Source: Schmidtea nova
Lineage: Eukaryota
DNA: 64,000 nucleotides
Assembly (NCBI GenBank): GCA_044892505.1
Contig: CM097883.1
Span: forward strand, 275,094,001-275,158,000
Direction: 5' to 3'
The translations under genes and the position numbers were made by a program. The notes under the pieces are model-generated. The model saw nothing but the letters and a program-made list of their open reading frames with translations. It had not been told where the DNA came from and made no database searches. Positions 12,468-44,900 of the stretch are shown piece after piece. Position 1 is the stretch's first letter, and every line of letters begins with the position of its first letter.

Positions 12468-12509
12468 GAGGCCAATGAGCCTTATTGAATGACCTAGCTA
12501 GGCGTTATG

Positions 12510-12795
12510 GAGAGATTAAACTGAGGCCAATAGAGCCATTTGAGAGATTAAATTGAGGCCAATAGAGCCATTTGAGAGATTAAATTGAGGCCAATAGAGC
12601 CATTTGAGAGATTAAATTGAGGCCAATAGAGCCATTTGAGAGATTAAATTGAGGCCAATAGAGCCATTTGAGAGATTAAAATTGAGGCCAATAGAGCCAT
12701 TTGAGAGATTAAATTGAGGCCAATAGAGCCAGGTGAGATAGTAAAATGAGGCCAATAGAGCCATGTGAGATATAAAATTGAGGCCAGAAGAGCCA
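12510..12795 (+). repeat. Tandem array, 32-bp unit, about 9 copies, each with a CCAAT box except the last
   Basis: Unit TGAGGCCAATAGAGCCATTTGAGAGATTAAAT; CCAAT at 12527, 12559, 12591, 12623, 12655, 12688, 12720, 12752. Confidence 0.95.
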
Positions 12796-21200: not shown

Positions 21201-24200
21201 GATACACATACGATCGCCGTAATGTCATCAAACACAGGTCCGGTATTAACCACGACAATAGAAATTAACGGAAGAGAAATCGAAGCAATGATCGACACTG
21301 GAGCAAACATTTCCGCCATCGACATCAAATGGATACCACAAGAGCAAAGACGGGAAATAGAAAGGACAAACGTCCATGTAATTGCATGTAGCAAAGAAGT
21401 TGTAGAAGTAGCAGGAAGATGGTGGGTAAAAATACGCCACTTAAACACGGAAATCGATACATACGTAGCTGTTATAACAGCATTAAGCGTACCTTGCATT
21501 ATCGGAACAGATTTGATGCCAGCATTATTTAAAGAGATTGTAATCGATCTCGGAACAATGAGACTAAAGGATCGCACAGGACAAATATGCGCAATAGAAG
21601 CCAAAGTGACAAGTTCAAAGCAAATGATAATACCCGCAAGAAAGGAGAAAATATGTTACGTAAAAATAGATCCGACAATCCAAGGGGATATGATTTTCGA
21701 ACCAAGTAAGAGATTCGAGAAAAGAAAAGCGTTGCCAATGGCAAGAGGACTAGTCAACATAAATGACGATGGAGAAATCCCAATAAACGTAGTAAACTTC
21801 GATGAAGAGGACAAAATAATATACGAAAACGAAAGATTAGGTAAATTAACCCCAATGATGGATATCGAACTGCCAATAGAAGGAGCAGAGAAAGATAAAG
21901 AACCAACCTGGAATATAGATAGTGAATTATTAAATGAGGATCAAAGGAAGCAGTTAGAAAAACTCCTGATAGAGTATAAGGATATATTTGCAGCATCCGA
22001 TTTGGATCTAGGAACATGTGATGTCACACTACATACAATACCATTAACAGATGAAACACCAATTGCATTAAGGCCGTACAAATTAGCGGAAGCACAGAAA
22101 GCAGTAGCAGAAGCAGAAGTGAAAAAAATGTTGGATGCAGAAGTAATCGAACCAAGTTGTTCACCCTGGCAATTTCCAGTGGTAATGGTGAAGAAGAAAG
22201 ACGGAACACAGAGATTCTGTATAGATTACCGAAGATTGAATACAGTGACAAAACGAGATACTTACCCATTACCAGACATCAACGAGATGCTACTAACATT
22301 ACAAGGAGCAGCATATTTTACGTCGTTAGATCTGAAAAGCGGATATTGGCAAATAAAAATGAAGGAAGAAGATAAAGAGAAAACTGCCTTTACCATCGGT
22401 AGAGACCTATATCAATTTCGAAAGATGCCATTTGGATTAACGAACGCACCAGCATCATTTCAGAGATGCATGAATTTCGTCACCCATGGAATAAAGCAGT
22501 GCATGGTCTACATCGACGATTTATTAATTTATTCTAGTACATTTGAACAACACATACAAGATATTCGAGATGTATTCGTTAGACTTAGACAATGGAAGTT
22601 AAAACTCAAGCCATCAAAATGCGATTGGGCAAAAGAAAAGGTTACATTTTTAGGACATATAGTGTCAGCAAAAGGAAAAGAACCGGATCCTAGAAATATC
22701 GACAAGGTAAAAGAATGTCCAGTGCCAAAAACAATAACCCAAATACAAGAATTTCTCGGACTATGTGGATATTATAGAAAGTTTATAAAAGATTACGCCG
22801 GAATAGCAAAACCTATACAGGAGCTGGTAAAGAAAGATGTATCATTCATATGGGGAGATGAACAACAAATAGCCTTTGAAACGTTGAGAGATAAATTGAT
22901 AACCGCACCCATATTGGTACACCCAGACTTTAAGAAGCCATTCCTACTTGCAACAGATGCAAGCGGATATGCAGCAGGAGCAGTATTAGGACAATACGAC
23001 GACGAAGGAAAAGAACGGGTAATCGGATATTATAGCCGAACATTCAAAAAGCATGAGAAAAATTACTCAGTGACAGAACGGGAAGCATTAGCGATTATAT
23101 TAGCGATTAAACATTTTAAATACCTATTATGGGGACACATCATCTGCATAACAACAGATCACCAACCGCTTGTATGGTTAGGACAGCACAAGGAAACATC
23201 CAGTAGATTAATGCGATGGGCAATGCAGTTACAGGAGTACTCACCAGACATTAAATTTAAATCAGGACGAGCGAATGCGAATGCAGATTGTATGTCAAGA
23301 CTGACATTTCCAGAACTAACCGATCCTGATGTACAACGAATTTGTGTATTAATAGCGGAGGATTTAGATTTTAGTGAGTTAAAGAAAGATCAACAAGAAG
23401 ACAAAGAATTAGGACAAATCATAGAGTTCCTAACATCTCGAAATATGGAAGTATTCAAGGATAATAAGGAATTAAAGGAACATATAGGAAAATATCAACA
23501 TCGCTACATAATAAATAAAGGATGGTTATTAATACAAGACGGGGAAAAGAGATTGATGTGTTTACCGGAAAACAGAAGGAAAGAGATAATGATCCAGTAC
23601 CATGATGGGAAACTAGGAGGTCATATGTCCGAGAAAAAGACAATAAATCGTATGAGACAAAAATATTATTGGCGAACAATGGAAGAAGATATAAAGGAAT
23701 GGATTAAAAATTGTCTAACTTGCGCAACCAGAAAGGATAGTGGGAAGAAATGGAAGAACCCACTACAACCAATGCCGATACCAGCAGAGCCAATGACAAC
23801 TATAGCAATGGACGTAATAGGACCATTACCAGAAAGTTTAAACGGAAATATTTATATATTGGTAATAACGGATTATTTGACGAAATTCCCGGAAGCATTT
23901 GCCATGCAAGACCAAAAAGCAAAAACCGTAGCAAAAATTCTAGTGGAAGAAATATGTTGCAGATACGGAACTCCAAAACAAATACTCACAGACCAAGGAA
24001 CTAATTTTATGAGTGAATTATTGAACGAGGTGACAAACTACTTCAGAATAGCAAAATTGAGAACTTCACCATATCACCCGCAAACGAATGGACAAACGGA
24101 GCGATTCAACGGCACATTGATTAGAATGTTATCAAACTACGTCAGCAGACACCAAACTGACTGGGATGAATACATAAAATTATGTTTAATGGCATACCGA

Positions 24201-27200
24201 ATGTCGATACATGCAGCAACAAAACTAAGCCCATTTCAACTTATGTATGGAAGAGAATGCAACATGCCCATAGATTTAGAGTATCAGCCACCATTATCGC
24301 AATATATGGAAGATGACGACTACGTAACCAAATTCAAAGAAAGAATGCAGGAGATATGGAAAACGGCAGAACTCAACATTAAATTCTATCAGGAAAGTTA
24401 TAAGGATTTACACGACCAGAAGAAAAATGTTAAAGCAAACGACCTAAAACCAGGAGATTGGGTGATAATAGAAACTCCCGAAATAATACCAGGAACTGTT
24501 AAGAAACTCCAAAGACCTGGAAGAGGACCTTATGAAATTATATACAAAAAGGACAACAATGTCAAAGTTAAGCTAATAAATAGACCGTTAATACGACCCA
24601 TATATGTAAACACCTGCAGATGTAAGAAAGTGCCTAAAACGATAACTACAACACCAGAAAATCGAATAATAACCAGATCACAAACAGCCAGGATAAATAT
24701 GCTCAGAGCTAATGCAACTGAAGACGACAAAGCAGAAATAAGGCAAAAAGAAATCAGAAATAAAGAGATCATATTGAAGGCGAGAGAAATAATGGGAAGA
24801 TGGCATGTTAAAGACGAAGTAGGCATATCAAGGGACATTAGACATATAATTAGCCGTTACGCACAAGGATTGCCAACCGAACCAATTATTTCGGATTTAT
24901 TGGAAAAAATCCCGGAAATACTCTTATTGAAAGATGTAGGAGGACAACCGGCCTTACATAATGCGATTCAGTGTAAAAACATTGAAAGAGCAAAAGAATT
25001 CTTGAAAATCGCAAAAGAAACAAACCAAAACCTAGACGTTGGGAATCGTGAACAAGAAACTCCATTAATGACAGCCGCAATCCACCAAGCAGATAAAGAA
25101 ATGATAGATCTATTGATAAAAGCTCATTTCAGTTGGACAGAACGAGATAGAGAGGACAAAACAGTGCTAAATCACGTAATATGGAGTTCTCACCAACCAA
25201 TGCTGGAATACATAATAGCTAACTCCACTTGGGAGATAGACGAACTAGTTAAAGGAGACATTATCAAAGAGGCAATCAAAATTGGTAAATGCAACACGAT
25301 CCGTAAGTTAATCAAATGGAAACGACCAGAAGATGATACATGGGTCTTAGACATAAACGAAGTATACAGCGAAGGACAAAACGCACTGTTAAGATACCTT
25401 TTGAAATTTACTTGTGATCAGAAGACATTACTAACCTTATTAGACAGAGGAAACATAAACATCACAAAGAATGAAGAAGAATACAAATTCGATAAAGAGA
25501 AGGAAGCCTTATTCAATAAGATTAGGAAATGGTGTGCGAAACCACTTGATAAACTAATAACATACAAAGACATAAACAATTTTAACGAGAAATACCAGAC
25601 GATAGTAAGCGAATATGAGGAATTAGTAAAAATCTTAAACCATCCCGAAAAATGCAAACAGGTTTTAGAGAAAAAAGAAAGAGAAAGTAACAAGAAACTC
25701 ACACCACTCTTCAAAGCAGAAGCACCATACCAAGCTAGACTAGATGCGATACAAGAAAAAGCAAAAGAATTGTTACCGGAATTCGAGAATAGTAAACATG
25801 CACTGGAAATACTCGGCGCATTAGTTGAAAAAGTACACGCATACGCAAAAGGAACATACAATGGTAACGACATAGTAATAATAAAAAAGGAGATGCCAGT
25901 AACATTCCTATTACCAAAAGACGGAATAATGCCCATACATAGAGCTCTACGAAATGGCAAAGATAGGAAAGTAATGGAAATTGCAAGAGTAATGCTAAAT
26001 TGCGGAAGCAATATGAATATGATAGACGAGAAAGGAGATACACTTATGATATTTGCAGCAAGGGCCAAAACGAAAACAAAGGTATTAGAAGAACTATACA
26101 AAGCAGGTGCAGGACTTACAGGAAAGACAGATAAAGATAATTCGATATTGGATGTAGCATTATTAACACACAATTGGGAAATGGTCAATTTCATTAAAAC
26201 CGTCCCAAATCAGGAAGAAATAGATCACCTAACTGATACGGTCAAGAAACCCAGTGTACTAGCAATGATGAACAACGTCGAACTAACAGAATCAATACTT
26301 ACGTGGATAAATCCTAATACTAACGAACCAGCATTCAGGATTAATAAGTTTACAGAACATAACCAAAACTGGTGTATAAGAAGTGCCTTAATAACGTATA
26401 AATGGCCAGAGATATTGAAGATGTTTATGGAAAGAAAAGATCTAAAAATCACAACCAGCCCGAAAGAGGAAAAATACACAGGCAAATGGAAAGAATTGAT
26501 GAAGACATACATCAACAATTGGATCAAGGCCAAAAAGGAAATCTTGGAACATAAATCCACTAACAAAGTAATACCGGAGCAGGTAGAAACACAAGAATTT
26601 GAGGCAAGTAATCTAACGACATTAGCATATGCAAAATTGATAGAAGAAATCAATGTCGAGGACGACATTTTCGACGAGCCAGGGGGAGATGACAACACAG
26701 ATAGTGACGACGGTAACAACTCAGAAAATTCAAGCGATCACGAACCACCCGATAAAGAGGAAAACGAGAGAAAAGACAAGAAACGAGACAAGGAAGGAAA
26801 GAAAGGTGAGGACGAAAAACAAAGAGATGAAGAGAGAGAACAAGGAACAAACGACCAAGGAGATAAAAATGACACCCAAAGAACAGGTTATAAATCAACC
26901 ATAAAACCATTCTTCAAACCAGAATTACTATTACTAACAATGATTATAACGTTAATTAATCCAAGTCAGGGAATGACATGTGAAGAAAGGGCAATAATAC
27001 AAATAAAAAACGCAAAAGGAATCGAACGAGTATGTTGGTCGAAAAAGGACAAAATCACGGAACAAAATAGCCCGATGGATTGCAGAATCTCAGAACACGA
27101 GCAAGAAATCATAGAGATCAACGACCTAGATCTAGATACCTGGTACAAAATATGCACCGTTAGGAAACAAAAGCATCCAAGATCACACAACACAATCGCA

Positions 27201-30200
27201 TGTGCAAAATACCAAACACCTAAAGCAGCCATGACAATACAACAGTCACCCAAAGGAGATTACATCATCGGAAAATGTGGAAGAACAGAGACACAGGGAA
27301 CAGAAAACAAAAAACCCCAGGCAATAGATAAGCAAACAACACCAACCCTACGAATTACAATAGAGAGGCCCGAAACAAGAATTGCCACAAACGAAACCGA
27401 AAGAGTGTCTTACCAAATGGAAGTATTATGCTTAGCACTCATACTAATAATGATAAAACGATTAGAGGAAGGAATAGAAATTGAAACTATGACAATAACA
27501 GAAGTAGAAGATACACAGAATACTAACATAAAATGTTGGGCGAGGAATAACGAGGAAATCGGCGTAAATGAAATAAGGAAAAGTCGAAAACCAACAACGA
27601 ATAAAGTAATTAAAGTATCCGAAGTAAAAGCAGATAAGACGTACAAACTATGCCTACTAGAAAAAGAGACAAACAAGAAAGGTACCACAAAATGCAAAAC
27701 ATTTCAACCCGGAGAAGTAATAAAGTTCAGAAGGAGAACGAGGAAGAGAAATAAACAAATCAAGCGGAAAATGAACATAACATTAGAAATAAAAGAGATA
27801 GAACCAAATGTGAAAGGAGTATGCTGGAGGAAGTACGAAAAAGAAACAAATAAAAGAACGACACCACAATGTCAAACAAGCACAGGAGCAACGACGATTC
27901 AAATAAAAGGTTTAGAAAGTAAACAAACTTACGAAATATGTCTGATAAAGAAAAATGATCAGATAACGATAAACGATCTAGAATGCGGAATATACACCAC
28001 TTCATCCGGAACAAGAACTAAAACGATAACACGAAAAAATAAAAGAAGACAACGAAACAAAGGGAAACCGAAGTACACCACTACCTTTAAAAACAATAAA
28101 CAACCGATAAGCCAAGAAGTTACGACAAAACCCGAGAAAAAGACATCAGCAACTCTGACATTATGGAAAATAGAGAATAAAACATTGGAGATATGTTGGA
28201 TAATAGTTCAGAAACATATAAGAAGACAATCAAGAGAGTGCAGAAAAACAAATAAAGAAATCAAGATCGAAAAACTACAATTTAATAGCGAGTATGAAGT
28301 ATGTACAATAGAAAAGACGGACGCACTAGGAAACCAACAAGAAAGATGCGAAACCTACTATACACCAGCGAACGCAACATCAAAAGGAATAACAAGGAAA
28401 CTCGAATTCAGGGAACTAAGCCAAACGAATGAACAAATGGACGCAGAAAAAACAATAACCGACCCTCAAGCAAAATGGACACCCGAAGAAGTTATCAAAG
28501 AAGTCAAAAGAAAGCAAGAGGAACGAGAACAATTAATGAGAAAACTAAAGGGACAATACGGAATAATGTTCAACCAAAGCGAACCTATACAAACAGACGA
28601 GAATAAAGAAATTAAAGAACTAATCGGCTTAGGAATATTAACAGCAACCATACCAGTAATAATCGCGTTATCAGCTATATGGATACGCAAGATAAACCCA
28701 AGAAAATCAACAACCCAATGGCTAAATATAGATAATACAAGCCATGGAGTAGAAATACTAGAAGAAAAAGCACGAGAAGAACCAAATAAGAAAGAAGCGA
28801 AAAGCGGAAAACTAGGAATAAACAACAAAGACAAGGAAATAAAAGAGATTAAAGGCGAAGAGAAAAAATATGAAAGGCGAACCAGAAGCCTACCGCAGAG
28901 TTCAAAATGGTTGGGTCTAACAATAATATTGACATTAATCAATAGGGAAGAAGCAACAAACCTACAAGCAGGGATAAAAATAGTAAATGTCCAGGAGGTC
29001 GAGAAAATATGCTGGAATAGAGAGGATGAACCAATTGGGAAAGATAACCCACTAAAATGCATAATCAGAAAATCCGACCAGGATATAGTACGAATAGAAG
29101 GGATGGATAGAGGAATCATGCATCGAATATGCATAATAGGAAAGGAAAAGAAGTCGGGGCTACCTAAGACAGTCGTATGTCAAAAATACGAAACGCCTGG
29201 ACTCGAATGGTATAGAGTAAAACCAACAAAGAAAGAAATCAAAAACACCATAGATCAACCAGCAACTCAGATAAGAAACACAACGGATAAACCAGGAGAA
29301 GGAGAGAAAAGCACCAATAAAACGAGAGAAAGAATATCACCCCAACAGGAGTGCGTATGCATAGCATTAATACTAGCAATGTCCAAACGTATCGATAAAG
29401 GAATAATAATAGAACAAATGGCCATAACAATAAGGAAAACAAGCAGCAACAAACTATGCTGGGGAACATATAACGAACCAAGGAAGGAATACCAAGTTCA
29501 GACAAGCGACGAATCACGAACAAACAAGGAAATCGAAATACAAGAAATACAAATGAATGAAGAAGGAAGTATATGTATATGGGAGAGAGGAATCCAAGAG
29601 GGAATAGAGCATTGCAAGACATTCCAAAAAGGGGAGATACTGAAATTCGATGAAGAAGAATTAACAAAAACAGAAAGAACTCTGACATTAACAGGACTCG
29701 ATCAGACAGTTAAAGGAATATGTTGGACAAAGCATAACCCAGAAGGGGAAGAAGACAACCTAACTCACTGTAGAGAAATAAAGAATAAAGAAAAAGTCGA
29801 ATTAAAGAAAATGGAAGTAAATAGGACATACGCGATATGTACCTTCACCAGAAAAGGTTCAGAAAAACCAGAATGCGGATTATATCAGATCTCAGAGAAA
29901 CTACAACAACAGATCGAACCAGGAAACATGGAAAACCGAACAAAAGAAAATAACGTCAAACAACTACTAAACCGCCATTGGTCTACCCAAGAAGTAATGA
30001 ACAAAGTCAAGAGTCAAATACCGAAAGAGAAGAAGCCAGAGGCTCAAACCCGAAATGAGATAAAAGTAAATCAGAATAAAAACAAAGAAACAAACATGGG
30101 GAAAGCAGTAATAGGATTGATCAGTATGGGAATATTAATAACGTATGGAATACTGACGACAAGCATAATAATATATTGGAGATACAGAAAGAGAAACAAA

Positions 30201-30362
30201 GCGACAGCCATACAATGGCCAGATATTAAAATTATGAAGCAAAGAATAGAAATACCAGAAGAGATACAGCAAGAATTCCAAAGAAGAACGAAAGGTAAAG
30301 AATTCTGGAAACAAATAGAAGATGAAGAACGATACGAGGAAAAGACGATAATGATGGTATAG
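18132..30362 (+). CDS. pol: 4076-aa polyprotein: Bcl-2-like / envelope glycoprotein / PR / RT / RNase H / IN / ankyrin repeats / two FN3 membrane proteins
   Basis: DTGA at 21294, YIDD at 22509, TDAS at 22953, integrase HHCC plus D,D,E and GPY; uninterrupted ORF. Confidence 0.96.
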   Translation: MSPKKQDEQQGLWKQVQEWINDLEVDLRQTQQTVVVRNKDEKRQDQWELCLRKLNKIAEMKEKETTPICQGEEWISKTIMEILAIIDPELRKYWRITEISEKAKSLHSAIAPILPEFIKEKTKSNHLDWQGTTMLIKKLTEGAETDNKYVIAIAYTIYNLLTLRRGRPKPTALERHIKNTAKIIAREIEPYVINKGGWETFIKTNQKKTQAKNMKKKFEKILEELGKEQAGTGNAKSSMNLSAIIMMMLIWMISTDSATAFEVFDCDQMKLGEKYSLRGTEQCKDATPVELQKIKKEQWYHVYQEAELIKTMVNECKVQKTRFAFYCGRGHYSAIVMPGTEREPIVLQGEDCEALFKHGEVTTRDKIKIRGKPGMMMQQTYYVAGRITGGEGYCQGETYPIFGVPATNLVVMDTYIVELKSYEAFFEPTTGEMKTLSMCKIDRSMCQTGMSTLVYKPKVNECQLQLLQGAKFDEIQGKTFQEEDDDDKDRAKHLKEALENKRQLKPDHREKRIEMRATPTVLITTNQDVGMRFIKGKATLKCSTTVYETNYPGIYVSKQEVPNAKPKIDTMDIKLHLYVNNKMDFLFHRGQASLQKVYYDLINNDCILNREILKTKLAVAITNPDSAMPLLPLREGHFGRVVGEAMYVYICEKTHASLAATTQLKPGTCTNELEIDYKGKVRYVQPVTRIINPPGFEPNPFNCSNAYGPLYQKPDGKWVMFPGRSEVIAPREFELMQLSKDRQFSDVDVSNNGIYSPKDLEAARQNILFPARREALLSNIVTITGGTDYREGPNYELLLSPAHFKKATENMMKAMWGRFLIFGQMMAGILGVILIIQIVRVIITQMLACFDIYKREKKVNWKMVVGFLPFLAKTMVLHGHSKDIHRIKRLLKILAKMKGTDEEVGRKFKKIMNDEQARQQLKRERKGLWERMKGYKTQNDSSDDDDDDDDYKGGQVYKNQAPQYIEKNPADAWKCYAPPPTMYQEPLQGGKNSTMQMMPMTNVYPMIPEDYKMRRCRSVDPQGDTHTIAVMSSNTGPVLTTTIEINGREIEAMIDTGANISAIDIKWIPQEQRREIERTNVHVIACSKEVVEVAGRWWVKIRHLNTEIDTYVAVITALSVPCIIGTDLMPALFKEIVIDLGTMRLKDRTGQICAIEAKVTSSKQMIIPARKEKICYVKIDPTIQGDMIFEPSKRFEKRKALPMARGLVNINDDGEIPINVVNFDEEDKIIYENERLGKLTPMMDIELPIEGAEKDKEPTWNIDSELLNEDQRKQLEKLLIEYKDIFAASDLDLGTCDVTLHTIPLTDETPIALRPYKLAEAQKAVAEAEVKKMLDAEVIEPSCSPWQFPVVMVKKKDGTQRFCIDYRRLNTVTKRDTYPLPDINEMLLTLQGAAYFTSLDLKSGYWQIKMKEEDKEKTAFTIGRDLYQFRKMPFGLTNAPASFQRCMNFVTHGIKQCMVYIDDLLIYSSTFEQHIQDIRDVFVRLRQWKLKLKPSKCDWAKEKVTFLGHIVSAKGKEPDPRNIDKVKECPVPKTITQIQEFLGLCGYYRKFIKDYAGIAKPIQELVKKDVSFIWGDEQQIAFETLRDKLITAPILVHPDFKKPFLLATDASGYAAGAVLGQYDDEGKERVIGYYSRTFKKHEKNYSVTEREALAIILAIKHFKYLLWGHIICITTDHQPLVWLGQHKETSSRLMRWAMQLQEYSPDIKFKSGRANANADCMSRLTFPELTDPDVQRICVLIAEDLDFSELKKDQQEDKELGQIIEFLTSRNMEVFKDNKELKEHIGKYQHRYIINKGWLLIQDGEKRLMCLPENRRKEIMIQYHDGKLGGHMSEKKTINRMRQKYYWRTMEEDIKEWIKNCLTCATRKDSGKKWKNPLQPMPIPAEPMTTIAMDVIGPLPESLNGNIYILVITDYLTKFPEAFAMQDQKAKTVAKILVEEICCRYGTPKQILTDQGTNFMSELLNEVTNYFRIAKLRTSPYHPQTNGQTERFNGTLIRMLSNYVSRHQTDWDEYIKLCLMAYRMSIHAATKLSPFQLMYGRECNMPIDLEYQPPLSQYMEDDDYVTKFKERMQEIWKTAELNIKFYQESYKDLHDQKKNVKANDLKPGDWVIIETPEIIPGTVKKLQRPGRGPYEIIYKKDNNVKVKLINRPLIRPIYVNTCRCKKVPKTITTTPENRIITRSQTARINMLRANATEDDKAEIRQKEIRNKEIILKAREIMGRWHVKDEVGISRDIRHIISRYAQGLPTEPIISDLLEKIPEILLLKDVGGQPALHNAIQCKNIERAKEFLKIAKETNQNLDVGNREQETPLMTAAIHQADKEMIDLLIKAHFSWTERDREDKTVLNHVIWSSHQPMLEYIIANSTWEIDELVKGDIIKEAIKIGKCNTIRKLIKWKRPEDDTWVLDINEVYSEGQNALLRYLLKFTCDQKTLLTLLDRGNINITKNEEEYKFDKEKEALFNKIRKWCAKPLDKLITYKDINNFNEKYQTIVSEYEELVKILNHPEKCKQVLEKKERESNKKLTPLFKAEAPYQARLDAIQEKAKELLPEFENSKHALEILGALVEKVHAYAKGTYNGNDIVIIKKEMPVTFLLPKDGIMPIHRALRNGKDRKVMEIARVMLNCGSNMNMIDEKGDTLMIFAARAKTKTKVLEELYKAGAGLTGKTDKDNSILDVALLTHNWEMVNFIKTVPNQEEIDHLTDTVKKPSVLAMMNNVELTESILTWINPNTNEPAFRINKFTEHNQNWCIRSALITYKWPEILKMFMERKDLKITTSPKEEKYTGKWKELMKTYINNWIKAKKEILEHKSTNKVIPEQVETQEFEASNLTTLAYAKLIEEINVEDDIFDEPGGDDNTDSDDGNNSENSSDHEPPDKEENERKDKKRDKEGKKGEDEKQRDEEREQGTNDQGDKNDTQRTGYKSTIKPFFKPELLLLTMIITLINPSQGMTCEERAIIQIKNAKGIERVCWSKKDKITEQNSPMDCRISEHEQEIIEINDLDLDTWYKICTVRKQKHPRSHNTIACAKYQTPKAAMTIQQSPKGDYIIGKCGRTETQGTENKKPQAIDKQTTPTLRITIERPETRIATNETERVSYQMEVLCLALILIMIKRLEEGIEIETMTITEVEDTQNTNIKCWARNNEEIGVNEIRKSRKPTTNKVIKVSEVKADKTYKLCLLEKETNKKGTTKCKTFQPGEVIKFRRRTRKRNKQIKRKMNITLEIKEIEPNVKGVCWRKYEKETNKRTTPQCQTSTGATTIQIKGLESKQTYEICLIKKNDQITINDLECGIYTTSSGTRTKTITRKNKRRQRNKGKPKYTTTFKNNKQPISQEVTTKPEKKTSATLTLWKIENKTLEICWIIVQKHIRRQSRECRKTNKEIKIEKLQFNSEYEVCTIEKTDALGNQQERCETYYTPANATSKGITRKLEFRELSQTNEQMDAEKTITDPQAKWTPEEVIKEVKRKQEEREQLMRKLKGQYGIMFNQSEPIQTDENKEIKELIGLGILTATIPVIIALSAIWIRKINPRKSTTQWLNIDNTSHGVEILEEKAREEPNKKEAKSGKLGINNKDKEIKEIKGEEKKYERRTRSLPQSSKWLGLTIILTLINREEATNLQAGIKIVNVQEVEKICWNREDEPIGKDNPLKCIIRKSDQDIVRIEGMDRGIMHRICIIGKEKKSGLPKTVVCQKYETPGLEWYRVKPTKKEIKNTIDQPATQIRNTTDKPGEGEKSTNKTRERISPQQECVCIALILAMSKRIDKGIIIEQMAITIRKTSSNKLCWGTYNEPRKEYQVQTSDESRTNKEIEIQEIQMNEEGSICIWERGIQEGIEHCKTFQKGEILKFDEEELTKTERTLTLTGLDQTVKGICWTKHNPEGEEDNLTHCREIKNKEKVELKKMEVNRTYAICTFTRKGSEKPECGLYQISEKLQQQIEPGNMENRTKENNVKQLLNRHWSTQEVMNKVKSQIPKEKKPEAQTRNEIKVNQNKNKETNMGKAVIGLISMGILITYGILTTSIIIYWRYRKRNKATAIQWPDIKIMKQRIEIPEEIQQEFQRRTKGKEFWKQIEDEERYEEKTIMMV
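18354..18740 (+). other. Bcl-2-like domain within the polyprotein
   Basis: Helical domain ending in BH2-like YVINKGGWETFI, with a hydrophobic alpha5-like NKYVIAIAYTIYNLL in the BH1 position. Confidence 0.65.
18846..20690 (+). other. Chuvirus-type envelope glycoprotein domain (signal peptide, Cys-rich ectodomain, TM)
   Basis: Signal MNLSAIIMMMLIWMISTDSATA; motifs FEVFDC, FYCGRGHYS, LYVNNKM, YYDLINNDCILNREIL, VGEAMYVYIC, NNGIYSPKDL...ILFP in the order recalled for chuvirus G; TM from 20586. Confidence 0.8.
21210..24640 (+). other. Core Pol: aspartic protease, reverse transcriptase, RNase H, integrase
   Basis: IDTGA; RFCIDYRRLN, DLKSGYWQI, MPFGLTNAPASFQR, YIDD; TDAS...YSVTEREALA...TDHQPL; H-H-C-C, AMD, TDQG, QTNGQTER, GPY. 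Confidence 0.98.
24930..26190 (+). other. Two clusters of ankyrin repeats after integrase
   Basis: GQPALHNAI, ETPLMTAA, KTVLNHVI; GIMPIHRAL, GDTLMIFAA, NSILDVAL, spaced about 33 aa apart. Confidence 0.85.
26925..28685 (+). other. Type I membrane protein module 1: signal, four FN3-like repeats, TM
   Basis: LLLLTMIITLINPSQG; four CW...L..x.Y.IC...C..Y/F.T repeats; TM LIGLGILTATIPVIIALSAIW. Confidence 0.7.
28908..30185 (+). other. Type I membrane protein module 2: signal, three FN3-like repeats, TM (paralogue of module 1)
   Basis: WLGLTIILTLINREEA; three similar repeats; TM AVIGLISMGILITYGILTTSIIIYW followed by RYRKR. Confidence 0.7.
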
Positions 30363-30488
30363 GGGCGGATTATGACTGTAAATAATAGTGTAAATAACAA
30401 AGCATTACCGTAATAGTATGGGTATCGATATTATAAAAAATTGTAAAAAGCTAGAAAAACAAAGTAAATGATGTATATAATTTAGAAA

Positions 30489-30845
30489 ATGACCGAACAG
30501 GACGAAACAACTGAAATAACTATGGCTATGAGATGGAAGGCACAATGTGATTTATTAGTACGAACAGTCAACTCATTACAGAACCAATTAGCGGAAAGAC
30601 AAATGTTATTATCAGAAAGTTATAACAATTGTTTCGAACAATTACACAGAATAGAGGAACAACAAAGAGCGATAACTGAACTCACCAGAGAAAATCAAAC
30701 GATAAGCAACACCAATCAAAGACAAGCAATAGAAATAAACCATTTAACACGAGGAGAAAGAGAAGGATCCGAAGAAGGATGGATGAGTTGGGTAATAAAT
30801 AGATTAAACAACGAAGCGGAACCAGATTCAACGAATGAGCCATAG
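30489..30845 (+). CDS. Accessory ORF, 118-aa coiled-coil protein
   Basis: Intact ORF with the element's A-rich codon usage, heptad pattern, TAG-AAA-ATG start context. Confidence 0.7.
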   Translation: MTEQDETTEITMAMRWKAQCDLLVRTVNSLQNQLAERQMLLSESYNNCFEQLHRIEEQQRAITELTRENQTISNTNQRQAIEINHLTRGEREGSEEGWMSWVINRLNNEAEPDSTNEP

Positions 30846-30937
30846 ATAAATAAAGCGGAAAACTGTAAATATGTAAAAATAAAAACAAGAAAAACCAAAA
30901 ATAAATGACAAGTCGAATGTATATATTATTGTAGAAA

Positions 30938-32314
30938 ATGGACAGAGAAGAACGAATAATCGAAATTTTGAGACTAGAAAACAGAAAATGGAGCAAGAGA
31001 CTCACATGCGGAAAATGTAACAATTTATTACGAGAACCCAGACAAACGATATGTGGATGTAGAATATGTACAAAATGTATACAAGAATTAGATGTAACAG
31101 GAATAACAACATGCCCAGCATGTAAAGAAGGAAGAATAGTGTTGAACGAAACCAGAACGGACAAAGCAACCCAGAGAGAAATTATGAGCACCATAACGGA
31201 GTGCGTAAATACACCTTGTACATGGCAAGGACAAATAAGCAATCTAGAGAACCATATGGAAAAATGCGAGGAAAAGAGAGCCGAATGCGAGAAATGCCAA
31301 CAGACAATAACTCTAAAGAAGAGAGAACAACACAAGGAAGAATGTAAAGAAGAAGAAATCGCATGCGAGTATTGTGAAACTCGAGAAACAAGGAGAAAAA
31401 TCGAAGAGGAACACTTGAATATAACAGAAGAGAAAGTATGCAGACAATATGTAAGTAAATGTCCAAACAATTGCGAAATAACCGAAGAAGTAAAGTTACA
31501 TGAACATTGGAAAGTATGTACCGAAAGACCAAGAGAATGTCCATATAACAAGCAGGGATGCAAAGAAAAGCGGACGCGGCAATCAATGAAACAACACCTA
31601 GAAGAAGCAGCACTAACGCATGTGGAAATGACAAACGAAACGACAAAAGAAACGGAACAGACAATCCAGAAATTAGAAAAAGAAGTAGAATCACATAAGA
31701 TAATGATGAGTTTACTACTAGAAACAAGAGAGCAGTTTGAACTAACTCGCGAAAGAATGGAAAAGAAAATAATAGCCATAGAAGAATTAGGAAAAGGAAT
31801 GAAAATACAATATAATCAATTAATACGAGAAATTGACGAAAGAAGGGACTTACCAATCGCACCTTACCTATGGAAAGTAACAGATTTCAGAGACAAACTA
31901 GCAGAAGCCAGAAATATGACGAAAACAGCAGTAATAAGCCCACCATTTTATTTATGGAAAAACGGGGTTAAAATAAGATTGAAAGTATACCCAAATGGAG
32001 ACGGAAGAGGACAAGGAACACACGTGTCAATATTCTTCTCACTATGTAAAGGAGAATACGATGACCTAATAGAATGGCCCTTGAAAATAGGAGTCATTAT
32101 AAGAATCAAAAGTATGGGAAAACCGGTAGAAAAGTTCTTTGAAACAGACAAACATTCGAGTACGAGCGAAAAACCAACGACAGAATGCGGACTAGCAGCA
32201 GGAGAACCAATGTTTATAAGGAAAGAAAACCTATGGGAGCAACTATATGCAGACACGCTATACATAGAGATGGAGAGGCATGAGAAAACAGACAGAAAAG
32301 GATGGTTGGCGTAA
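30938..32314 (+). CDS. Full-length TRAF-family protein (RING, TRAF zinc fingers, coiled coil, MATH/TRAF-C), 458 aa
   Basis: CGKCNNLLREPRQTICGCRICTKC...CPAC; C-x-C zinc fingers; LWKVTDF...SPPFY...YPNGDGRGQGTHVSIFFSLCKGEYDDLIEWP. Confidence 0.95.
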   Translation: MDREERIIEILRLENRKWSKRLTCGKCNNLLREPRQTICGCRICTKCIQELDVTGITTCPACKEGRIVLNETRTDKATQREIMSTITECVNTPCTWQGQISNLENHMEKCEEKRAECEKCQQTITLKKREQHKEECKEEEIACEYCETRETRRKIEEEHLNITEEKVCRQYVSKCPNNCEITEEVKLHEHWKVCTERPRECPYNKQGCKEKRTRQSMKQHLEEAALTHVEMTNETTKETEQTIQKLEKEVESHKIMMSLLLETREQFELTRERMEKKIIAIEELGKGMKIQYNQLIREIDERRDLPIAPYLWKVTDFRDKLAEARNMTKTAVISPPFYLWKNGVKIRLKVYPNGDGRGQGTHVSIFFSLCKGEYDDLIEWPLKIGVIIRIKSMGKPVEKFFETDKHSSTSEKPTTECGLAAGEPMFIRKENLWEQLYADTLYIEMERHEKTDRKGWLA

Positions 32315-32428
32315 TGAAGGAAGTAACCATGTAAATAAAATGTATAGAAACAATATAAATTAACGAATAATCAAAAACAATAAAAATAAAAAAATGATTA
32401 AATATTCTTTTTATCTGTAATTATAGAA

Positions 32429-33490
32429 ATGGGAAATATAGAAGTAACCTTACAAGAAGTAACAGTACATCAAGACGAAATGATCAGAAATCACATGGAG
32501 CGGATTGGGATATGGATTCATGCCTATTATCGAAAACAGGAGGAATTGGAAAGACAAACCCAAGCACTAAGAGAAGCCGAGAAAACGAATCAAAGAAGTC
32601 GAGAAAAAATAGAAGAAGTCTACAAACTACTAAGACAACAAAACGAATACTACAAAGAGATGATGAAAGAGCGACGAGAGGAGAGGGATAGACAACAAAT
32701 AAAAACAGACCATAAGATTCAGTCAATCACAGAACAAGCCAGATATTGGAAGAAAGAGGCAAAAGACTCTTATAAGGAAGCAAGGGAGATAATAGAACGA
32801 ACAGCGTACAGCGATGATTGGAAACTGTTTAAAGAGATCGATGAATTAAAAGAGGAATTAGGGCAAAAGATCAGTCAAGAAGCATCAAATAAAGTATGGA
32901 GTAAGAAAAGACAACAATTTATCCGAGAACAAGCCAAGAAAATAAAAGAATTAACTTATCAAGTACAAAGAATGGGAGAAGACTTAGCCAATCAAGAACA
33001 GTTAAAAGGTATGCTGACAGGAATGTGGAATCACAAGGAAGAAAACATGAAAAGAGACATAAATGGATATCAAGGAGTGATCACCCAGAAGAAAATAGAA
33101 TTAAAAAGAACTAAAGAAAGAATGGAAGAAACGAGGCAGAGTTATGAAGAGAACATAACAAATTTGGCAAAAGAAAACGAAGAACTGAGAAAGAAGTTGG
33201 CAGAAAAACCAACACCAATAAAAGAAACAAGTATCACAGCAGCAGTGACCGAAATGATGGAGAAGGAAGAGAGAGAGAAAAAATTGGCAGAACTAGAAAA
33301 ACAAATTGAAACCCTAACAGAACAGGCGAACTATCTGGAATACTTATTAGATGAAGAGATCCAGATATCCCACACATACCGAGAAGAAGTCGAAATGTGG
33401 AGGAGCACGGTAATATGGATGCCACTCCCCATAAATCAGGTGGAACCTCAAGACGAAGGTTTTCACGAACCCAACGAAACCCTTGTATAA
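32429..33490 (+). CDS. Accessory ORF, 353-aa coiled-coil protein
   Basis: Intact E/K/R/Q-rich heptad ORF; pyrimidine tract plus TAG directly before ATG. Confidence 0.75.
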   Translation: MGNIEVTLQEVTVHQDEMIRNHMERIGIWIHAYYRKQEELERQTQALREAEKTNQRSREKIEEVYKLLRQQNEYYKEMMKERREERDRQQIKTDHKIQSITEQARYWKKEAKDSYKEAREIIERTAYSDDWKLFKEIDELKEELGQKISQEASNKVWSKKRQQFIREQAKKIKELTYQVQRMGEDLANQEQLKGMLTGMWNHKEENMKRDINGYQGVITQKKIELKRTKERMEETRQSYEENITNLAKENEELRKKLAEKPTPIKETSITAAVTEMMEKEEREKKLAELEKQIETLTEQANYLEYLLDEEIQISHTYREEVEMWRSTVIWMPLPINQVEPQDEGFHEPNETLV

Positions 33491-33565
33491 ATGTGCGGAA
33501 ACCAAGTGTAAATAAATTATGTAAAATAAAAAGTGTCAAGCTGTATTGACCGATGTATAAAAGAA

Positions 33566-34135
33566 ATGAGAAAGCTCGCAATAGCAACACTCCTATGGTT
33601 AACAACCATTACCCTACAGAGAGAAGATCTACAACTAACCGAAACCCAATTACGAGTTCTACCCGACAAAACCTATCAGAAAGTAGACAGCCTAATCGAA
33701 GAAGTAATTAAAGAAATCAACGAATTCCGACAGAAATTCCCCCACAATCAAGATCGTCAAATCCAACAAATCTTCGATAATCAACAACTGAAACTAGAAG
33801 AAACCCGAAAAATCCTGAAAGAAGGTAGAGAACCCATAAAAAGCCTATCCCAAGCTGAAATAGAATATCAAGAGAAATGGATCATAGCAATCATCATAAT
33901 CCTAGCAGTCAGCACAACTATCATCGCAATCACAATCCTGCTTGCCTCATATAGAATAAAAATCCTAAAACAAAAGCAGAAAATCTACAACCAAACCTCC
34001 AGACGAGATAACCGAGCTCAAAGACGAATAAGGAGCCATCTCAACCACATTCAAACCCACTACGAGCTACAAATGATCAACGAGAGGACCCGAACTCAAC
34101 CCCAAGCGAGCCAGACGATCGAACAAATTGTATAA
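33566..34135 (+). CDS. Accessory ORF, small type I membrane protein (signal, helical ectodomain, TM, basic tail)
   Basis: ATG at 33566; MRKLAIATLLWLTTITL; TM WIIAIIIILAVSTTIIAITILLASY. Confidence 0.72.
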   Translation: MRKLAIATLLWLTTITLQREDLQLTETQLRVLPDKTYQKVDSLIEEVIKEINEFRQKFPHNQDRQIQQIFDNQQLKLEETRKILKEGREPIKSLSQAEIEYQEKWIIAIIIILAVSTTIIAITILLASYRIKILKQKQKIYNQTSRRDNRAQRRIRSHLNHIQTHYELQMINERTRTQPQASQTIEQIV

Positions 34136-34339: not shown

Positions 34340-35727
34340 TGTTGGGCCCGCCAAATCACCTAAAAACACAATAAAACGAACAAAATCATGAAACAATAAA
34401 GAAATGATAAAAATAAAAATAGCAAGAAAAACAAATTAAAAATAACAATAAAACGACAAATAATAATTGAGAAATTTTCAGTAAAAGGAAATTTTGAAAA
34501 TAAACCGGTAAACAACCGCAAAAGGGGGCCTGAAATAAGAAAAGTAGAATTAAATAAAATAATAGTACAAATAATTAATTAATTACTTAGAAAATCAGGA
34601 CCACCCAGCGAGAAACCGGAAAAGGAAACAAAATAATGTTTAGATTAGATTAAAATAATAAAAATACTTTGAAGGACGGCCTGATCCTGATTGGTCAATC
34701 CAACCAGACGGATCAGTATAAATACCGATCCAAAAATCACAACAACAGACTTGAGACGTTTTTACTTTTCACTTACAATCAAGACTAAACTTTGATTTAA
34801 GTAACATTTCATTTAACGAAGCGAGAATTTTTTGAAAAAACAGAATTCAAGTACGGAACGTAATTTTTATTGTTATTTTTTAATGTACCCATGATTTTTA
34901 TTTTAATTAAAAGTTTATATGTAAACGTCATTTCATTTTTTCATTGATTATTTTTAATGCATATAGCTATACTTCCTATGCTGCTCACGCGGCGAGGGAG
35001 TCCGAGTCGTCGTCGTGGGGCCTCAGGGTCTCACATGGCGGTTCAACCTTTTTATTATTTAATTTAGATGTGAAGTTTTATCTAGAAAATTTGATTGAAT
35101 TTTTAGTCTAATACAGACCATTTGCAAATTATTTAATTTTGGGTTGCACAACGGACGAAGGTCGAGGGCCAAATATGTAGATTGCGGAGGGCGGATGGAT
35201 AAGGAGGGACACCCCATGGTAGGGCATGCTCAGTCTTTAAATTTTTGGTAAATTGAATCGAAAGGGAACCTCCCGCATGGAAAACAGTGAGCAACAACTA
35301 AAATAAATTTGAATAATTTCGTTGGAATGAGAAAATCCAACGTAGTCCAAAGTCCGATTTCATTCGGAATCAGCATTTCGCCTACGAAATTTTAACATCG
35401 ATAAATTCCGATCGCGATGGAATGCGTCGGAAAATCCAAATTAAATTAGTTACTAAAAATAGGCCGATCGTCGTATATGACGCGGTTTCCCAAGTTATTC
35501 TCCGATCGCTGTATATAGCGCGGAAATCTTGATTAAATTCGATAATTCCTGAATGCTGTATATAGCACAGGACTAATTATGAACTCTTTATTCCGACCGT
35601 GGTAGATCACGGCGGAGAGAAATAAAATTAATCTTATTTTTTAACTGTTGTGATTATATGCAACATAATTAAATTATCAACGAATTTCCCCCTTAACTCA
35701 TATTTATATCCAATAAATGTAATATAG

Positions 35728-36207
35728 ATGTCGACAGCTGAACTTATACATCAATTGACGCAACTACGGAATATGGAGCAAGGGAATCTGCGAAATGGAA
35801 ATATCTCGCAGCTCAAGGATCTACCAGCATCGATATTGCGGACCCTCAACTGCCAAATGTATAAGTGGCGACAGGGGTTTGGCCGAAAATGCCCGTTCTC
35901 GATATGGACAGGAGGGCACGACCAAATACTCTATCGAGGAGGACCGAACTGGCCGATTTCTCAAAGGCCGTACTCAAACAAATTTGGCCGACTTGTCGTA
36001 CTGATCAAGGACACCGATGGACGGACAAGCCGTGTAATTTATTGGGGGCATATCCCTCGTCGGGAACTATGCCAACTAGGCCTACACGAATTCCTGCCAC
36101 GAAAACCGTTCGGCAAGGAGTGCCAGAAAGGACAATCCTCATTCTCTTGGGCTCGTCTCCGTCAGAAACCGATTAACAGCGAATTGCATAGCCTGTTTCG
36201 GAGATAA
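35728..36207 (+). CDS. LTR-encoded ORF1, 3' LTR copy
   Basis: Translation identical to 9093-9572. Confidence 0.55.
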   Translation: MSTAELIHQLTQLRNMEQGNLRNGNISQLKDLPASILRTLNCQMYKWRQGFGRKCPFSIWTGGHDQILYRGGPNWPISQRPYSNKFGRLVVLIKDTDGRTSRVIYWGHIPRRELCQLGLHEFLPRKPFGKECQKGQSSFSWARLRQKPINSELHSLFRR

Positions 36208-36390
36208 GAACTGATTGTCAAATCTTTCAAATTGTGATTAAATATTAATATTCAGTAGTGTTTTTGTTTTGTTGTTTTGAGTTTTGGTATTGTGTTTTTA
36301 TAATTCATATTCGTAACCAAATAACCCTATAATCAGTTTCATTTTTCACATCATTTAATCATAGAGTAAATATCCTAAATAAATTATAGA

Positions 36391-36987
36391 ATGAACCCAG
36401 ATTTGATGCAGAAAGAATTGGAAAAGATGTGGCGGATTCGGAGAGCCCAGGACAAGGAATTGGGTCTCCTCAAGGCACAATTGATCAAAGCAGAGGCACA
36501 GATTGCATATTTGCGCAAAAGCTGGTTTGCTCCGGCCCGTATGAAGGAGCAAATCAGTAAAACCGAGCGCGCCCAACAGACTGCAGCCGATTACCAAATG
36601 GAATGGGAGGCTACAAAGATAGAACTCCGAAAATGCCTCCATTCCGTAACTGCCTCATACATCGAGAAGGAACTCAGAGAGCAAATCCGTCCGATTACGT
36701 ACCAAGCTTGGACGGCAGAAAAGAAGACAGTAAACTCCATTGGAACGGATGTCACCGATTTAATTGAAAGTCGGAATGAGACAGCTCCTCCAGCCAATTC
36801 AACCACTTCATCGGCGACTGCGCACCAGAAACGCAAGCGCATTGGGCAGAAACGGCGGAGACAGAGAAAATTATTTGCCCAGCAATTACAAATCCAAGTC
36901 GATGGTCTACATCAGATGACTGAGGAAGCATTATTGACGGAGATTTTTCCTCCGGCGGGAGTTTTTACCGAACTCATTAAAAATTAA
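36391..36987 (+). CDS. LTR-encoded ORF2, 3' LTR copy
   Basis: Translation identical to 9756-10352. Confidence 0.8.
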   Translation: MNPDLMQKELEKMWRIRRAQDKELGLLKAQLIKAEAQIAYLRKSWFAPARMKEQISKTERAQQTAADYQMEWEATKIELRKCLHSVTASYIEKELREQIRPITYQAWTAEKKTVNSIGTDVTDLIESRNETAPPANSTTSSATAHQKRKRIGQKRRRQRKLFAQQLQIQVDGLHQMTEEALLTEIFPPAGVFTELIKN

Positions 36988-37454
36988 ATAAATTGTTGCA
37001 TTGGCTTAAGAATCTCATCGTTCATTTAAATTGATTTAATTAACTTTACCAATGATTAAATAAAGATAGAACAAAAGTATAAATTCAGTTTACAAAATAT
37101 CGAATAGAGATAATTAAATAATTAAGCGAGCATTCGTTGAAATACTTCTCGCAGACTGAGCAATGATAAAAATAAATTTTCTGAAAGATTAACGCGGGAT
37201 ACATAAGTAGATGATTAAAGCATAAGTCCTTCTAACGGCAGCAATGAACCCGTAAACATAAATGGGGAGTAGTACTAGCGATAGTGCTCACCTGCCCATC
37301 ATTGTTTAACCACCCTGCGCATCACCAACTTGATTATATAGGGAAATAATCAAGGGCGCTGGAGTGTAGAATTGCAATTTTATGCATGATCATGGATGAG
37401 GGATCCCTAGTCATTGTTAGAACATTTTTCATCTAACCCCTCCATGAACCCAGC

Positions 37455-37486
<32 letters not shown>

Positions 37487-41955: not shown

Positions 41956-44900
41956 CAGTGGTGGATTTAGATTTTGGTGCGTGGGGGGCGACGAAAATTT
42001 TCAAGGGGCGCCACAAATTATGAAGATTGTACTACTCATTTTCCCGAGTATTGAGTGAATACTAATATTATTATAAAGCATTAGATTCAGTAAATTTATT
42101 GATGTAACAAACATACCAGTTTATTTATTATTTAAATTGCTTCCTGCGTGATTTCATTGAAGCAAAACGATTTATAATCGATTCAAAGTCAATGTTCTCA
42201 GCCAGTTCGCGTTCTATTGAAATTAATGCTAATCCAGACAGACGTTCGTTTGTCATTGTTGATGGCAAATAATTTTTGATAATTTTCAGTCTACTGAAAC
42301 TTCTTTCAGCAGTAGCAGATGTAACAGGAAGAGTCAAGTATATTTTATAGAGAATTGCCAAATTGGGAAGTCCCGGCGCCATCTGATTTCAACCAAGAAA
42401 GGCAGCACCTCTTTAAGTTGTAGTTCACAAGATAGTAATGGGCGTATTGATGCATACACGTATTTGAAAGTATCATATTCTAGGATTGCTTCTTCAATAT
42501 TAATATCGTTTTTGTAAATGTCGCATAAATTTTGAAAAGATTCTTTATTTTCTTCTGATATTTGTGATGGATCAAGACAGGAGAATAAAGCAACAGTGTT
42601 ATGAAAATCATTAAAACGTTCATCTAGTTGTGTTACAAGTGTATCCAAGACAGTGAAATACGTTTCACATTTGAAACGTGTAGTTGGATCATCAACCCTT
42701 TCATCTCTGTTAAGTTCACCTGCCATGCGTTTCTTTTTTGCAACTCGCTTTTCTTTAAATTCTGTTTCAACATCTGGTGAAGAACAATTTTTGATAATAA
42801 ATGATTTTACAGCAACATTTAGACTTTCAAAAGCTTTATCACTTCTTATATCAGCAAACTTATTTCTGGCAACATAAATCAATTGTTTTGCAAAGGCAAT
42901 ATCTATGTCCTTTCGTTGCAAATAGTTTGATAACACAAAGATATTATCTAACAGCTTTTGTAGAAATAGCATCAGAAAAACAAAAGAATATTTTGTTATC
43001 AAAATAGATAGTCCCATAGCTTCTGCTCTGACACTTCCTTTGTGTTCTTTTGATTCCCCAAAATTTATATCTTCTAGAGTAGATATAGTAGCAGAGAATG
43101 ATCCAACAACTGCATCAACTGCATGCTTTCGGCTTGCCCATCTTGTATCAGAAAGTCGTTTTAGAGTATCTACTGTCGATTCATATCGAGACTTCTGATG
43201 TTCTTCGAGAATATGTAGTCGTGGTAAACTTGATGTAAGGAAAGTATACAACTTTTCTGTTGTACCAAAAAACAACTGAACATCACTGTTAAGAGACATT
43301 GCTTCAACAGTCACCAAATTCAATGCATGAGAACAACAGTGAACAAATATAGCATTTGGTGAAAGTGTCTTTATCTTAGTTTGAAGACCATTTTTAATCC
43401 CAGACATCACAGAGGCACCATCATATGCCTGTCCTCTACAAAGTGTAATGTCAATGTTTCGCTTTTGTAACTCCGTTAATATTATATCAGAAAATGCTGC
43501 AGCATTACTGTTTTCCAACTTGTAGAAGCCTATAAATCGTTCAACAACTTGTCCTGATTTTAACACTAATCTTAAAGAAACTGACATTTGATCAACTCTG
43601 GATATATCAATTGTTGAATCAACAATTAGAGAAAAGAATTGTGCAGACCTAACTTCATTATCAATATTTGCGGATAATTCAGAAGCAAGTGATTGAATTA
43701 GGTCATTTTGTACATCATGACATAAATAAAGTTCATTTTTCTTTTCAAACTTTAGATGATTGTCCAAAGTGGAATCATATTTAGCCAATAAAAATAGCAA
43801 TTCTCGAAAATTTCCAATATTACTACTACTGTCAGAGCCAGAATGTTCTCTGTGTCCTCTGAATGGCAAACCTTGTTTTGCTAAAAACAACGTTGCATCT
43901 ACCATGCGTTTCAAAACTTCTCTATTTTTTTCCACTTGATAACGCTCCTGACTGATCAAACCAGATATCACAGTTTTATCATTTGAAATGCGATATTTAG
44001 CCAGCAAATATTGTCATATTGCACTTTGATGTTGATTGGAAGCTTCATGTTTAACGATTTTTTCCATGCCTTTTTTCCAGTTATAAACTCCAAAATTTGG
44101 ATCGGACCATTCCTTGCTATAATTTTCAGTTTTACAATCAGCGAATAACCAGCAAGCTTGGCAATGCATTTTTTGATTTGTTGGTGAATAGACAAGCCAA
44201 TTTCTTTCCTCCTTCATACTAACTTTTCCAAAACATTTTGTGTACCAAGAAATTTGAAACTTGCGCCCCAATTCATCTGTCGGAAATTGAAATGGTTCAT
44301 TGAGTCCAGGTTGACATGGTCCGATTTCAAACAATTTTCGTATCAGTTTCGAGCTTATGCTCGTATTAATGTAGAGTCCTGGATCTGTAGGAAAGTCGGA
44401 TTGAGGAAGAAGTGGTTCTTGTAAAATATCTGAAGCAAGTTGTTTTTCCACTGTATCAAATTCTGAACCACCCTGATTATGTTTCAAGCCCTGAGCAGGT
44501 AATGTTACCGTCTCAGTATTCTCTGCACATGAATGTATAGCTGGGTGTTGATCATCAACTACAGATAGTACTTGCTCATCTTCAACAAGAACTTCAGATG
44601 ATGTTTCTGTCTCAGCAGGCTCAGTACAGGAACTCGAATGCGTAGATGCGTGTTGATCATCAAATACATGCACATTTTTAGCAGAAACTTCAGCTGATTG
44701 AACTAATGGCAGTTTAGACTGTTTAGTAATAAATGATGTTAACTTAATACATTTGCTAGCATCTGCCTTGAGACTGGCTTCCTTTGCCAATTTACGCCTA
44801 GATGATCCACTTAATTTGGTAACTGATTTTCTTTTATTAGTGTCACCAGTTGACTCAGCCATGGCTCTAATTTAAATTTTATTTTAATTCAATATTGAAT

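Follow-up and report, generated by a model that had tools for sequence, protein, structure and literature searches.

A full-length TRAF gene carried by a Burro-type LTR element of Schmidtea nova was found to be a fixed accessory gene and not a passenger. The window is the whole stretch of DNA that was analyzed, 64,000 nucleotides of contig CM097883.1 (assembly GCA_044892505.1, positions 275,094,001 to 275,158,000, forward strand). The gene was present in every copy sampled through an anchor outside it. Purifying selection acts on every domain of the protein, which indicates that the product matters to replicating lineages, and by this evolutionary evidence the gene appears to be a real, functional one. 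On balance this selected accessory gene of the element probably encodes an adaptor for signalling or a ubiquitin ligase through which the host cell survives during element activity.

The TRAF gene and the element that carries it

The element spans 29,754 bp (29.75 kb) and is of the Burro-type Gypsy/env kind. Its LTRs (7705-10823 and 34340-37458) are 3119 bp each and 100% identical, and it is inserted in an (AAT)n tract with TAAT at both flanks. Related families are designated A2, A3, B, C and D, the family of the window being A1. The features of the window are as follows.

7705-10823 (+): 5′ LTR, TG...CA, end at 10820; 100% identical to the 3′ LTR over 3119 bp
10827-10844 (+): primer-binding-site-like sequence immediately downstream of the 5′ LTR, as it is of the family D LTR
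11149-11610 (+): 153-aa ORF with a C-terminal IAP-type C3HC4 RING (Pfam zf-C3HC4_3, E 3e-11)
13376-18247 (+): gag part of ORF1 with CCHC knuckles (Pfam), in a separate frame from the next ORF in this copy
18108-30362 (+): env (Monjiviricetes-type fusion protein)-PR-RT-RNase H-integrase-ankyrins-long tail with membrane segments (Pfam PF24664, E 1e-70; RVT_1, RT_RNaseH, rve, Ank_2)
30489-30845 (+): small coiled-coil-like ORF, first gene of the cassette; 73%, 61%, 51% and 32% identity in A2, A3, B and D
30846-30937 (+): 92-nt spacer with TGTAAATA at 30864, AATAAA hexamers, acceptor-like TTGTAG and AG at 30933-30934 (copies, families, shuffle test)
30938-32314 (+): TRAF gene, 458 aa (ORF, Pfam, PDB matches, AlphaFold model, selection tests)
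31007-31123 (+): RING with eight Cys ligands (24, 27, 39, 41, 44, 47, 59, 62), compared across 70 copies
31202-31621 (+): TRAF-type zinc fingers, about residues 89-228 (conserved Cys/His columns, Pfam zf-TRAF)
31610-31846 (+): coiled coil, model helix 225-303 (AlphaFold model)
31865-32278 (+): MATH/TRAF-C domain, residues 310-447 (Pfam, PDB, structural match)
32429-33490 (+): coiled-coil ORF with no family assigned and an acceptor-like AG ahead; identity 75% (A2), 55% (B) and 30% (D)
33566-34135 (+): ORF with a signal-peptide-like start and one membrane segment; 59%, 53% and 34% identity in A2, A3 and B, no firm Pfam match
34340-37458 (+): 3′ LTR (repeat comparison)

The genes thus run in the order small RING ORF, gag, env-PR-RT-RH-IN-ankyrins-tail, small ORF, TRAF, coiled-coil ORF, membrane ORF. 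The sequence at 10827-10844 resembles what we take to be a tRNA-Pro primer-binding site. In the Pfam order the env domain PF24664 precedes RVP and Ank_2 follows integrase. Hallmarks of Burro-type elements found here are a length of ~30 kb, multi-kb LTRs, the PR-RT-RH-IN order, env between gag and PR, and ankyrins, with the one-polyprotein frame seen in 17 of 20 siblings. In the window copy the gag-pol frame is split at ~18.1-18.25 kb (18108-18247) despite the identical LTRs. The same junction carries a stop in the other 3 of the 20 siblings, and the continuity of the 17 implies a polyprotein of ~5,600 aa. The split may be a mutation or an assembly error, and this copy may not be autonomous; its family looks recently active, since the LTRs are identical. 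Homologues of the 153-aa RING ORF occur in A2, A3, B, C and D. No BIR was detected by Pfam in the window's own family, this ORF included. A BCL2-like domain before env gave no Pfam, PDB or Atlas match, and a GGW motif there, presumably BH2-like, was noticed by eye only.

Several other observations were made on the element and its surroundings. The pol tail (26700-30362) contains repeated Cys/Trp-containing units, a weak FN3 match (E 0.003) and membrane segments, like receptor mimics, and ~500 aa of it are a duplication missing from A2 and A3. Tandem arrays of 29-nt and 32-nt units lie between the RING ORF and gag (11999-12828). Each LTR contains two ORFs (9093-9572 and 9744-10352 in the 5′ copy), the second with homologues in A2, A3 and B (28-43%). 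Outside the element, at 48053-49333 and 42334-44871, are an intronless ORF for a galactosyltransferase (E 1e-29) and a DUF4371 ORF (Pfam), the latter presumably a DNA-transposon remnant.

The TRAF gene is a single uninterrupted frame from the ATG at 30938 to the stop at 32312-32314. Pfam placed TRAF3_RING at residues 24-62 (weak, E 0.006), zf-TRAF at 166-220 and MATH at 310-446 (E 1e-20). The protein has the defining parts of the TRAF family, a C-terminal MATH/TRAF-C domain, a coiled coil ahead of it, and an N-terminal RING and zinc fingers. The AlphaFold model (mean pLDDT 94.7) predicts a long helix at 225-303, with pLDDT there mostly above 94, and its best structural matches were the TRAF domains of TRAF3/5/1/2. 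In the PDB comparison TRAF3 matched the MATH/TRAF-C domain (E 1e-23) and the N-terminal part matched N-terminal structures of TRAF6/5/2; the MATH groove region differs from that of TRAF2/3. A word-indexed homologue search returned only distant TRAFs (10 matches, 24-37% identity). The ORF, Pfam, the model and the flanking LTRs agree with the earlier note of a complete, intronless RING-zinc finger-coiled coil-MATH gene inside an element. The resemblance to TRAF2/3/5 proposed in that note holds for architecture and not for ancestry. A TRAF2/3/5 orthologue was rejected, as the protein groups with triclad-type TRAFs and has a RING Cys in place of His.

That replacement, in CGCRIC (residues 39-44), had also been noted, and it is real. 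It is not specific to the element, however, since CGC was found in 6/6 full-length host TRAFs examined and in a Dendrocoelum TRAF, and a Cys-for-His RING in 23 of the 109 public matches with a scorable RING. Seven of the eight RING ligands are invariant in 70/70 copies and C24 is kept in 69/70. Because all eight are kept across copies, the RING is, judged by its sequence, inherited and not decayed.

The four spacers of the cassette (30363-33565) are 126, 92, 114 and 75 nt long. TGTAAATA occurs 5-30 nt past the stop in all four (0 of 5,000 shuffles), and a YAG 1-6 nt ahead of the ATG ends three of the four (9 of 5,000 shuffles). Of eight TGTAHATA sites in the 23.5-kb interior, seven lie within cassette spacers. 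The AG before the TRAF is invariant in 70/70 copies and is also found in families A2, A3, B and D. The spacers read as a poly(A)-like site followed by a splice acceptor, which suggests that the downstream genes are expressed as separate mRNAs. With an AG before its ATG and a poly(A)-like site after its stop, the TRAF would be made from its own spliced mRNA. The available text of PMC8629364 describes operon spacers of ~100 bp for the flatworm Macrostomum and refers to spliced leaders of planarians. Cis-splicing from an LTR leader would fit the spacer signals equally well as a spliced-leader route. As a separate observation, the operon-like signals (TGTAAATA past the stop, YAG ahead of the ATG) are conserved across element families.

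Retention and selection across copies and families

Copies were sampled as the first 70 of 159 exact matches to a 22-mer upstream of the TRAF, so that selection on the TRAF itself was avoided. The gene was present in all 70 (68 fully covered), free of stops and frameshifts in 51, and open over 440 aa or more in 55. All 20 of the 20 matches without the upstream anchor were of A2/A3 types. Among 44 RT-motif matches in the first 331 Mb of contig C1, a TRAF 20-mer lay within 9.5 kb in 36 and within 60 kb in seven; the remaining one (L090) carries a TRAF that has suffered a deletion. Of 5,722 candidates from a protein search, 92 were scored, with identities of 95-100%, and element flanks were present at all 30 that were fetched; these 92, chosen by similarity, were left out of dN/dS.

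TRAF variants common to at least four of the 70 copies comprised 137 synonymous and 63 non-synonymous changes, a dN/dS of 0.11, with 0.13 for the RING, 0.13 for the zinc fingers, 0.10 for the coiled coil and 0.08 for MATH. Elsewhere in the element (~30-39 copies) shared-variant values were 0.00 for RT, 0.08-0.09 for the ankyrins and 0.23-0.32 for the pol tail. Private TRAF variants gave an omega of 0.50 with 16 stops, and 19 of the 70 copies were broken. Against the sister family A2 a codon model gave dN 0.12, dS 1.36 and omega 0.086 (LRT 212); domain-wise dS was saturated for A3 and B, and the A2 values alone were relied on. The MATH region has a dS of 0.51 between A1 and A2 (31865-32278 against L158), compared with 1.25-2.8 in most other regions; this low value suggests recombination between families over MATH.

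At fourfold sites the frequency of A is 0.71 in the window TRAF and 0.62 in pol, and 0.55-0.71 across the element TRAFs; in six ORFs of host TRAFs it is 0.30-0.39. The earlier view that the TRAF codons are as A-rich as those of pol is thereby borne out. Long residence in the element, as opposed to fresh capture, is supported by purifying selection, by the divergence from A2 and by the element-type codon bias. The dN/dS analysis proposed in the note thus returned 0.11 on shared variants and 0.086 against A2. A TRAF absent from other copies and nearly identical to one host gene had been named as the mark of recent passive transduction; it was found in 70/70 copies, and no host TRAF examined exceeds 31% identity to it.

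Families A2, A3 and B have the same gene order as the window's element. TRAF identity to A2, A3, B and C is 78, 71, 52-53 and 36% (for C the MATH region only), and RT identity falls in the same order (99, 96, 93 and 89%). Family C has its MATH within a 4,706-aa polyprotein and retains nothing of the TRAF beyond MATH and a portion of the coiled coil; the RING is therefore dispensable there. Family D, found via public protein P0013, measures 25.8 kb; in the copy examined (C1:514766270-514792087, L212-L215) the two LTRs share 99.95% identity. It encodes a RING, a protease-ankyrin ORF, a full TRAF (36% identity) followed directly by a BIR-RING IAP, and several unassigned ORFs. No gag core, env, RT or integrase was detected in two whole copies or in 18/18 upstream stretches, 16 of which extended to the 5′ RING gene. 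Of the first 40 pattern matches to family D, 39 had the TRAF (unbroken in 26) and all 40 the IAP (unbroken in 33), with shared-variant omegas of 0.14 and 0.16, respectively.

Family D is a non-autonomous LTR element and the commonest family found. Exact 20-mer counts were 333 for A, 116 for B, 249 for C and 995 for D (reversed controls 0), with the context of matches checked on a sample per family. These counts amount to at least 1,693 element-borne MATH loci in the genome, and, with the TRAF kept in sampled copies, they support the suggestion that the element amplifies TRAF copies.

Relationship to host TRAFs

Trees of 51, 52, 32 and 24 rows were built from subsets of 160 public matches and fetched loci, with multi-MATH proteins left out throughout and the long row P0035 left out of the 24-row tree. 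In the 24-row tree the element TRAFs A1-A3, B, C and D, with public proteins P0013 and P0027, form one clade (99/97), and in the 32-row tree the element TRAFs fall within a triclad-type group (100/98). In a MATH-only tree (52 rows, without D) family C joins the element clade at only 79/55. The clade may owe some of its support to a composition bias common to its members and to long branches, both of which were flagged in the 32- and 24-row trees.

A MATH profile applied to 2,419 candidates gave, by position and frame length, 73 host-type, 75 B and two C matches among the best 150; the host-type count is a lower bound from a method other than the element 20-mer counts. Most host-type matches are clustered at C2:405-455 Mb, a region dense with tandem copies. 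Twelve cluster rows form their own clade in the MATH tree (100/99), apart from the element TRAFs. The phylogeny proposed earlier thus groups the element TRAFs together and away from the host clusters. The count of host TRAFs inside LTR elements called for in the note came, for the element cassette, to none of the 33 host-type TRAF loci whose flanks were checked. The suggested link to planarian TRAF expansions stands in part: elements inflate the number of TRAF loci, but they did not seed the host clusters, since the clustered expansion is a separate clade. Among the host TRAFs examined no sister gene of the element TRAF was found (best identity 31%). One host TRAF is sister to Dugesia japonica TRAF-2A, and several host TRAF ORFs are also intronless.

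The element TRAF shares its domain order, CGC RING and broad clade (100/98) with planarian host TRAFs (Smed-TRAF-2A/B, D. japonica TRAF-2A ADF47429.1, Dendrocoelum T1DBK6), but is 29-35% identical to them, forms a separate subclade and has A-rich codons. With vertebrate TRAF2/3/5 it shares the TRAF-domain fold, and family D encodes TRAF and IAP side by side, a pairing comparable to the TRAF2-cIAP module. The element TRAF is nevertheless ~28-30% identical to these, non-orthologous in trees and different in its RING (His to Cys), and IAP binding is putative.

Proposed role, alternatives and significance

TRAF proteins form trimers, recruit partners with the MATH domain and work together with RING ligases, and cIAPs bind TRAF2 through BIR1. 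The element TRAF would derive from a single ancient capture of a triclad TRAF mRNA. Its product may trimerise and bind signalling partners via MATH, like TRAF2/3, and may cooperate with element-encoded IAP/RING proteins in damping stress or apoptotic signalling; a copy whose products spare its own cell would leave new insertions. RNAi of host TRAF in planarians increased cell death, as given in the available text of PMC7586133. The Burro1 BIR-RING IAP reportedly protected stem cells from apoptosis (Lee 2026, as cited in the accessible part of PMC13465017). These two reports, with selection on the protein, make a survival role the most likely reading. A TRAF-IAP partnership in the window's own family is weakly grounded, because its RING protein lacks a detectable BIR and cIAPs use BIR1. 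An LMP1-like self-contained module was also considered and rejected; none of the TRAF-binding motifs considered was seen, by eye, to be conserved in the membrane ORF tail across four families.

The TRAF could instead be an immune-evasion decoy that joins the trimers of host TRAFs or sits on receptor tails and so shuts off defence signalling, with no survival effect as such. The C-terminal TRAF domain alone acts as a dominant negative, and it is all of the TRAF that family C keeps; the MATH groove has diverged from host TRAFs, and the element encodes an envelope protein. In A1, however, the RING and zinc fingers are constrained as much as MATH, all eight RING ligands are kept, and in family D an IAP adjoins the TRAF, so that a decoy is considered unlikely. 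Removal of a host restriction factor by an E3 or adaptor, or help with particle trafficking or budding, would agree with the intact RING, the several element RING proteins, the env gene and the membrane proteins. Such a direct life-cycle role is very unlikely, given that the TRAF is retained by family D, which has no detected gag core or env, though D could act on helper particles. Retention by a family that cannot replicate by itself points to the cell more than to the particle as the site of action.

That the animal might depend on TRAF made by the element, in stem cells or regeneration for instance, and that host selection might maintain it, has a precedent in the mutualism reported for the Burro1 IAP (available text of PMC13465017), and the non-autonomous family has 995 matches with TRAF and IAP under selection. 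Constraint is strongest, however, on variants shared by replicating lineages; the weak constraint on private variants and the broken copies are as expected for selection through transposition, and host-level mutualism is judged quite unlikely. Recent passive transduction of a host TRAF is hardly credible and is refuted by the selection and sister-family data: omega is ~0.1, sister families are 36-78% identical, the codon bias is of element type, and element flanks were present at every A-family match examined. The gene is intronless, as such a transduction would have it, but so are several host TRAF ORFs; a near-identical donor could hide among further matches beyond those examined.

That Burro elements carry MATH/TRAF cargo is already published. 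The available text of PMC6431247 lists MATH_TRAF_C, BIR, RING, ankyrin and BCL2-like motifs, and proposes meddling with apoptosis and ubiquitination. It describes Burro1/GYPSM1 and Burro2-4 of Schmidtea mediterranea and a Burro-like element of Dugesia tigrina which, like that of the window, are ~30-kb Gypsy-type elements that place env between gag and PR, encode ankyrins and carry RING and MATH/TRAF cargo. MATH lies inside ORF1 in Burro1 and on a separate upstream accessory ORF in the D. tigrina element, whereas the window TRAF is full length, from RING to MATH, and is a separate ORF downstream of pol in a multi-gene cassette, with no BIR detected in its family; family C has the Burro1-like layout. 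The Burro1 B-IAP (Lee et al. 2026, via the accessible part of PMC13465017) is likewise a host-derived cell-death regulator on a Burro element, and family D, too, encodes an IAP of the BIR-RING type. For the B-IAP a function was demonstrated, and here one is inferred; the cargo here is a TRAF, and family D is non-autonomous. Burro1 expression is under PIWI control according to the available text of PMC8532177. Planarian TRAF expansion is described in the consulted portions of PMC6109357 and PMC7586133, the main text of the latter, as available, making no mention of transposons or Burro. The literature searched held no description of a TRAF that is full length and under selection, of a non-autonomous family pairing TRAF with IAP, or of the cassette signals; Grohme 2018, Lee 2026, Jurka 2007 or supplements may cover part.

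In its widest form the proposal is possible but doubtful: Burro-type elements would carry a single TRAF capture as a virus-like TRAF-IAP survival module in an operon-like cassette resolved by spliced-leader trans-splicing, a ~1,000-copy parasite of these elements, having lost the entire replication core, would persist by supplying the module, and transposons would be the main source of TRAF gene dose in the animal. What had been a listed Burro MATH domain becomes a full-length signalling gene under selection, of apparent single origin, in three layouts: a separate ORF, fused into a polyprotein, and paired with an IAP in a non-autonomous family. Since element-borne loci far outnumber the host-type loci found, planarian TRAF/MATH counts and RNAi targets need checking for element origin. 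Whether these elements manipulate the death of host cells, and who gains, host or element, becomes a question that the findings open to experiment.
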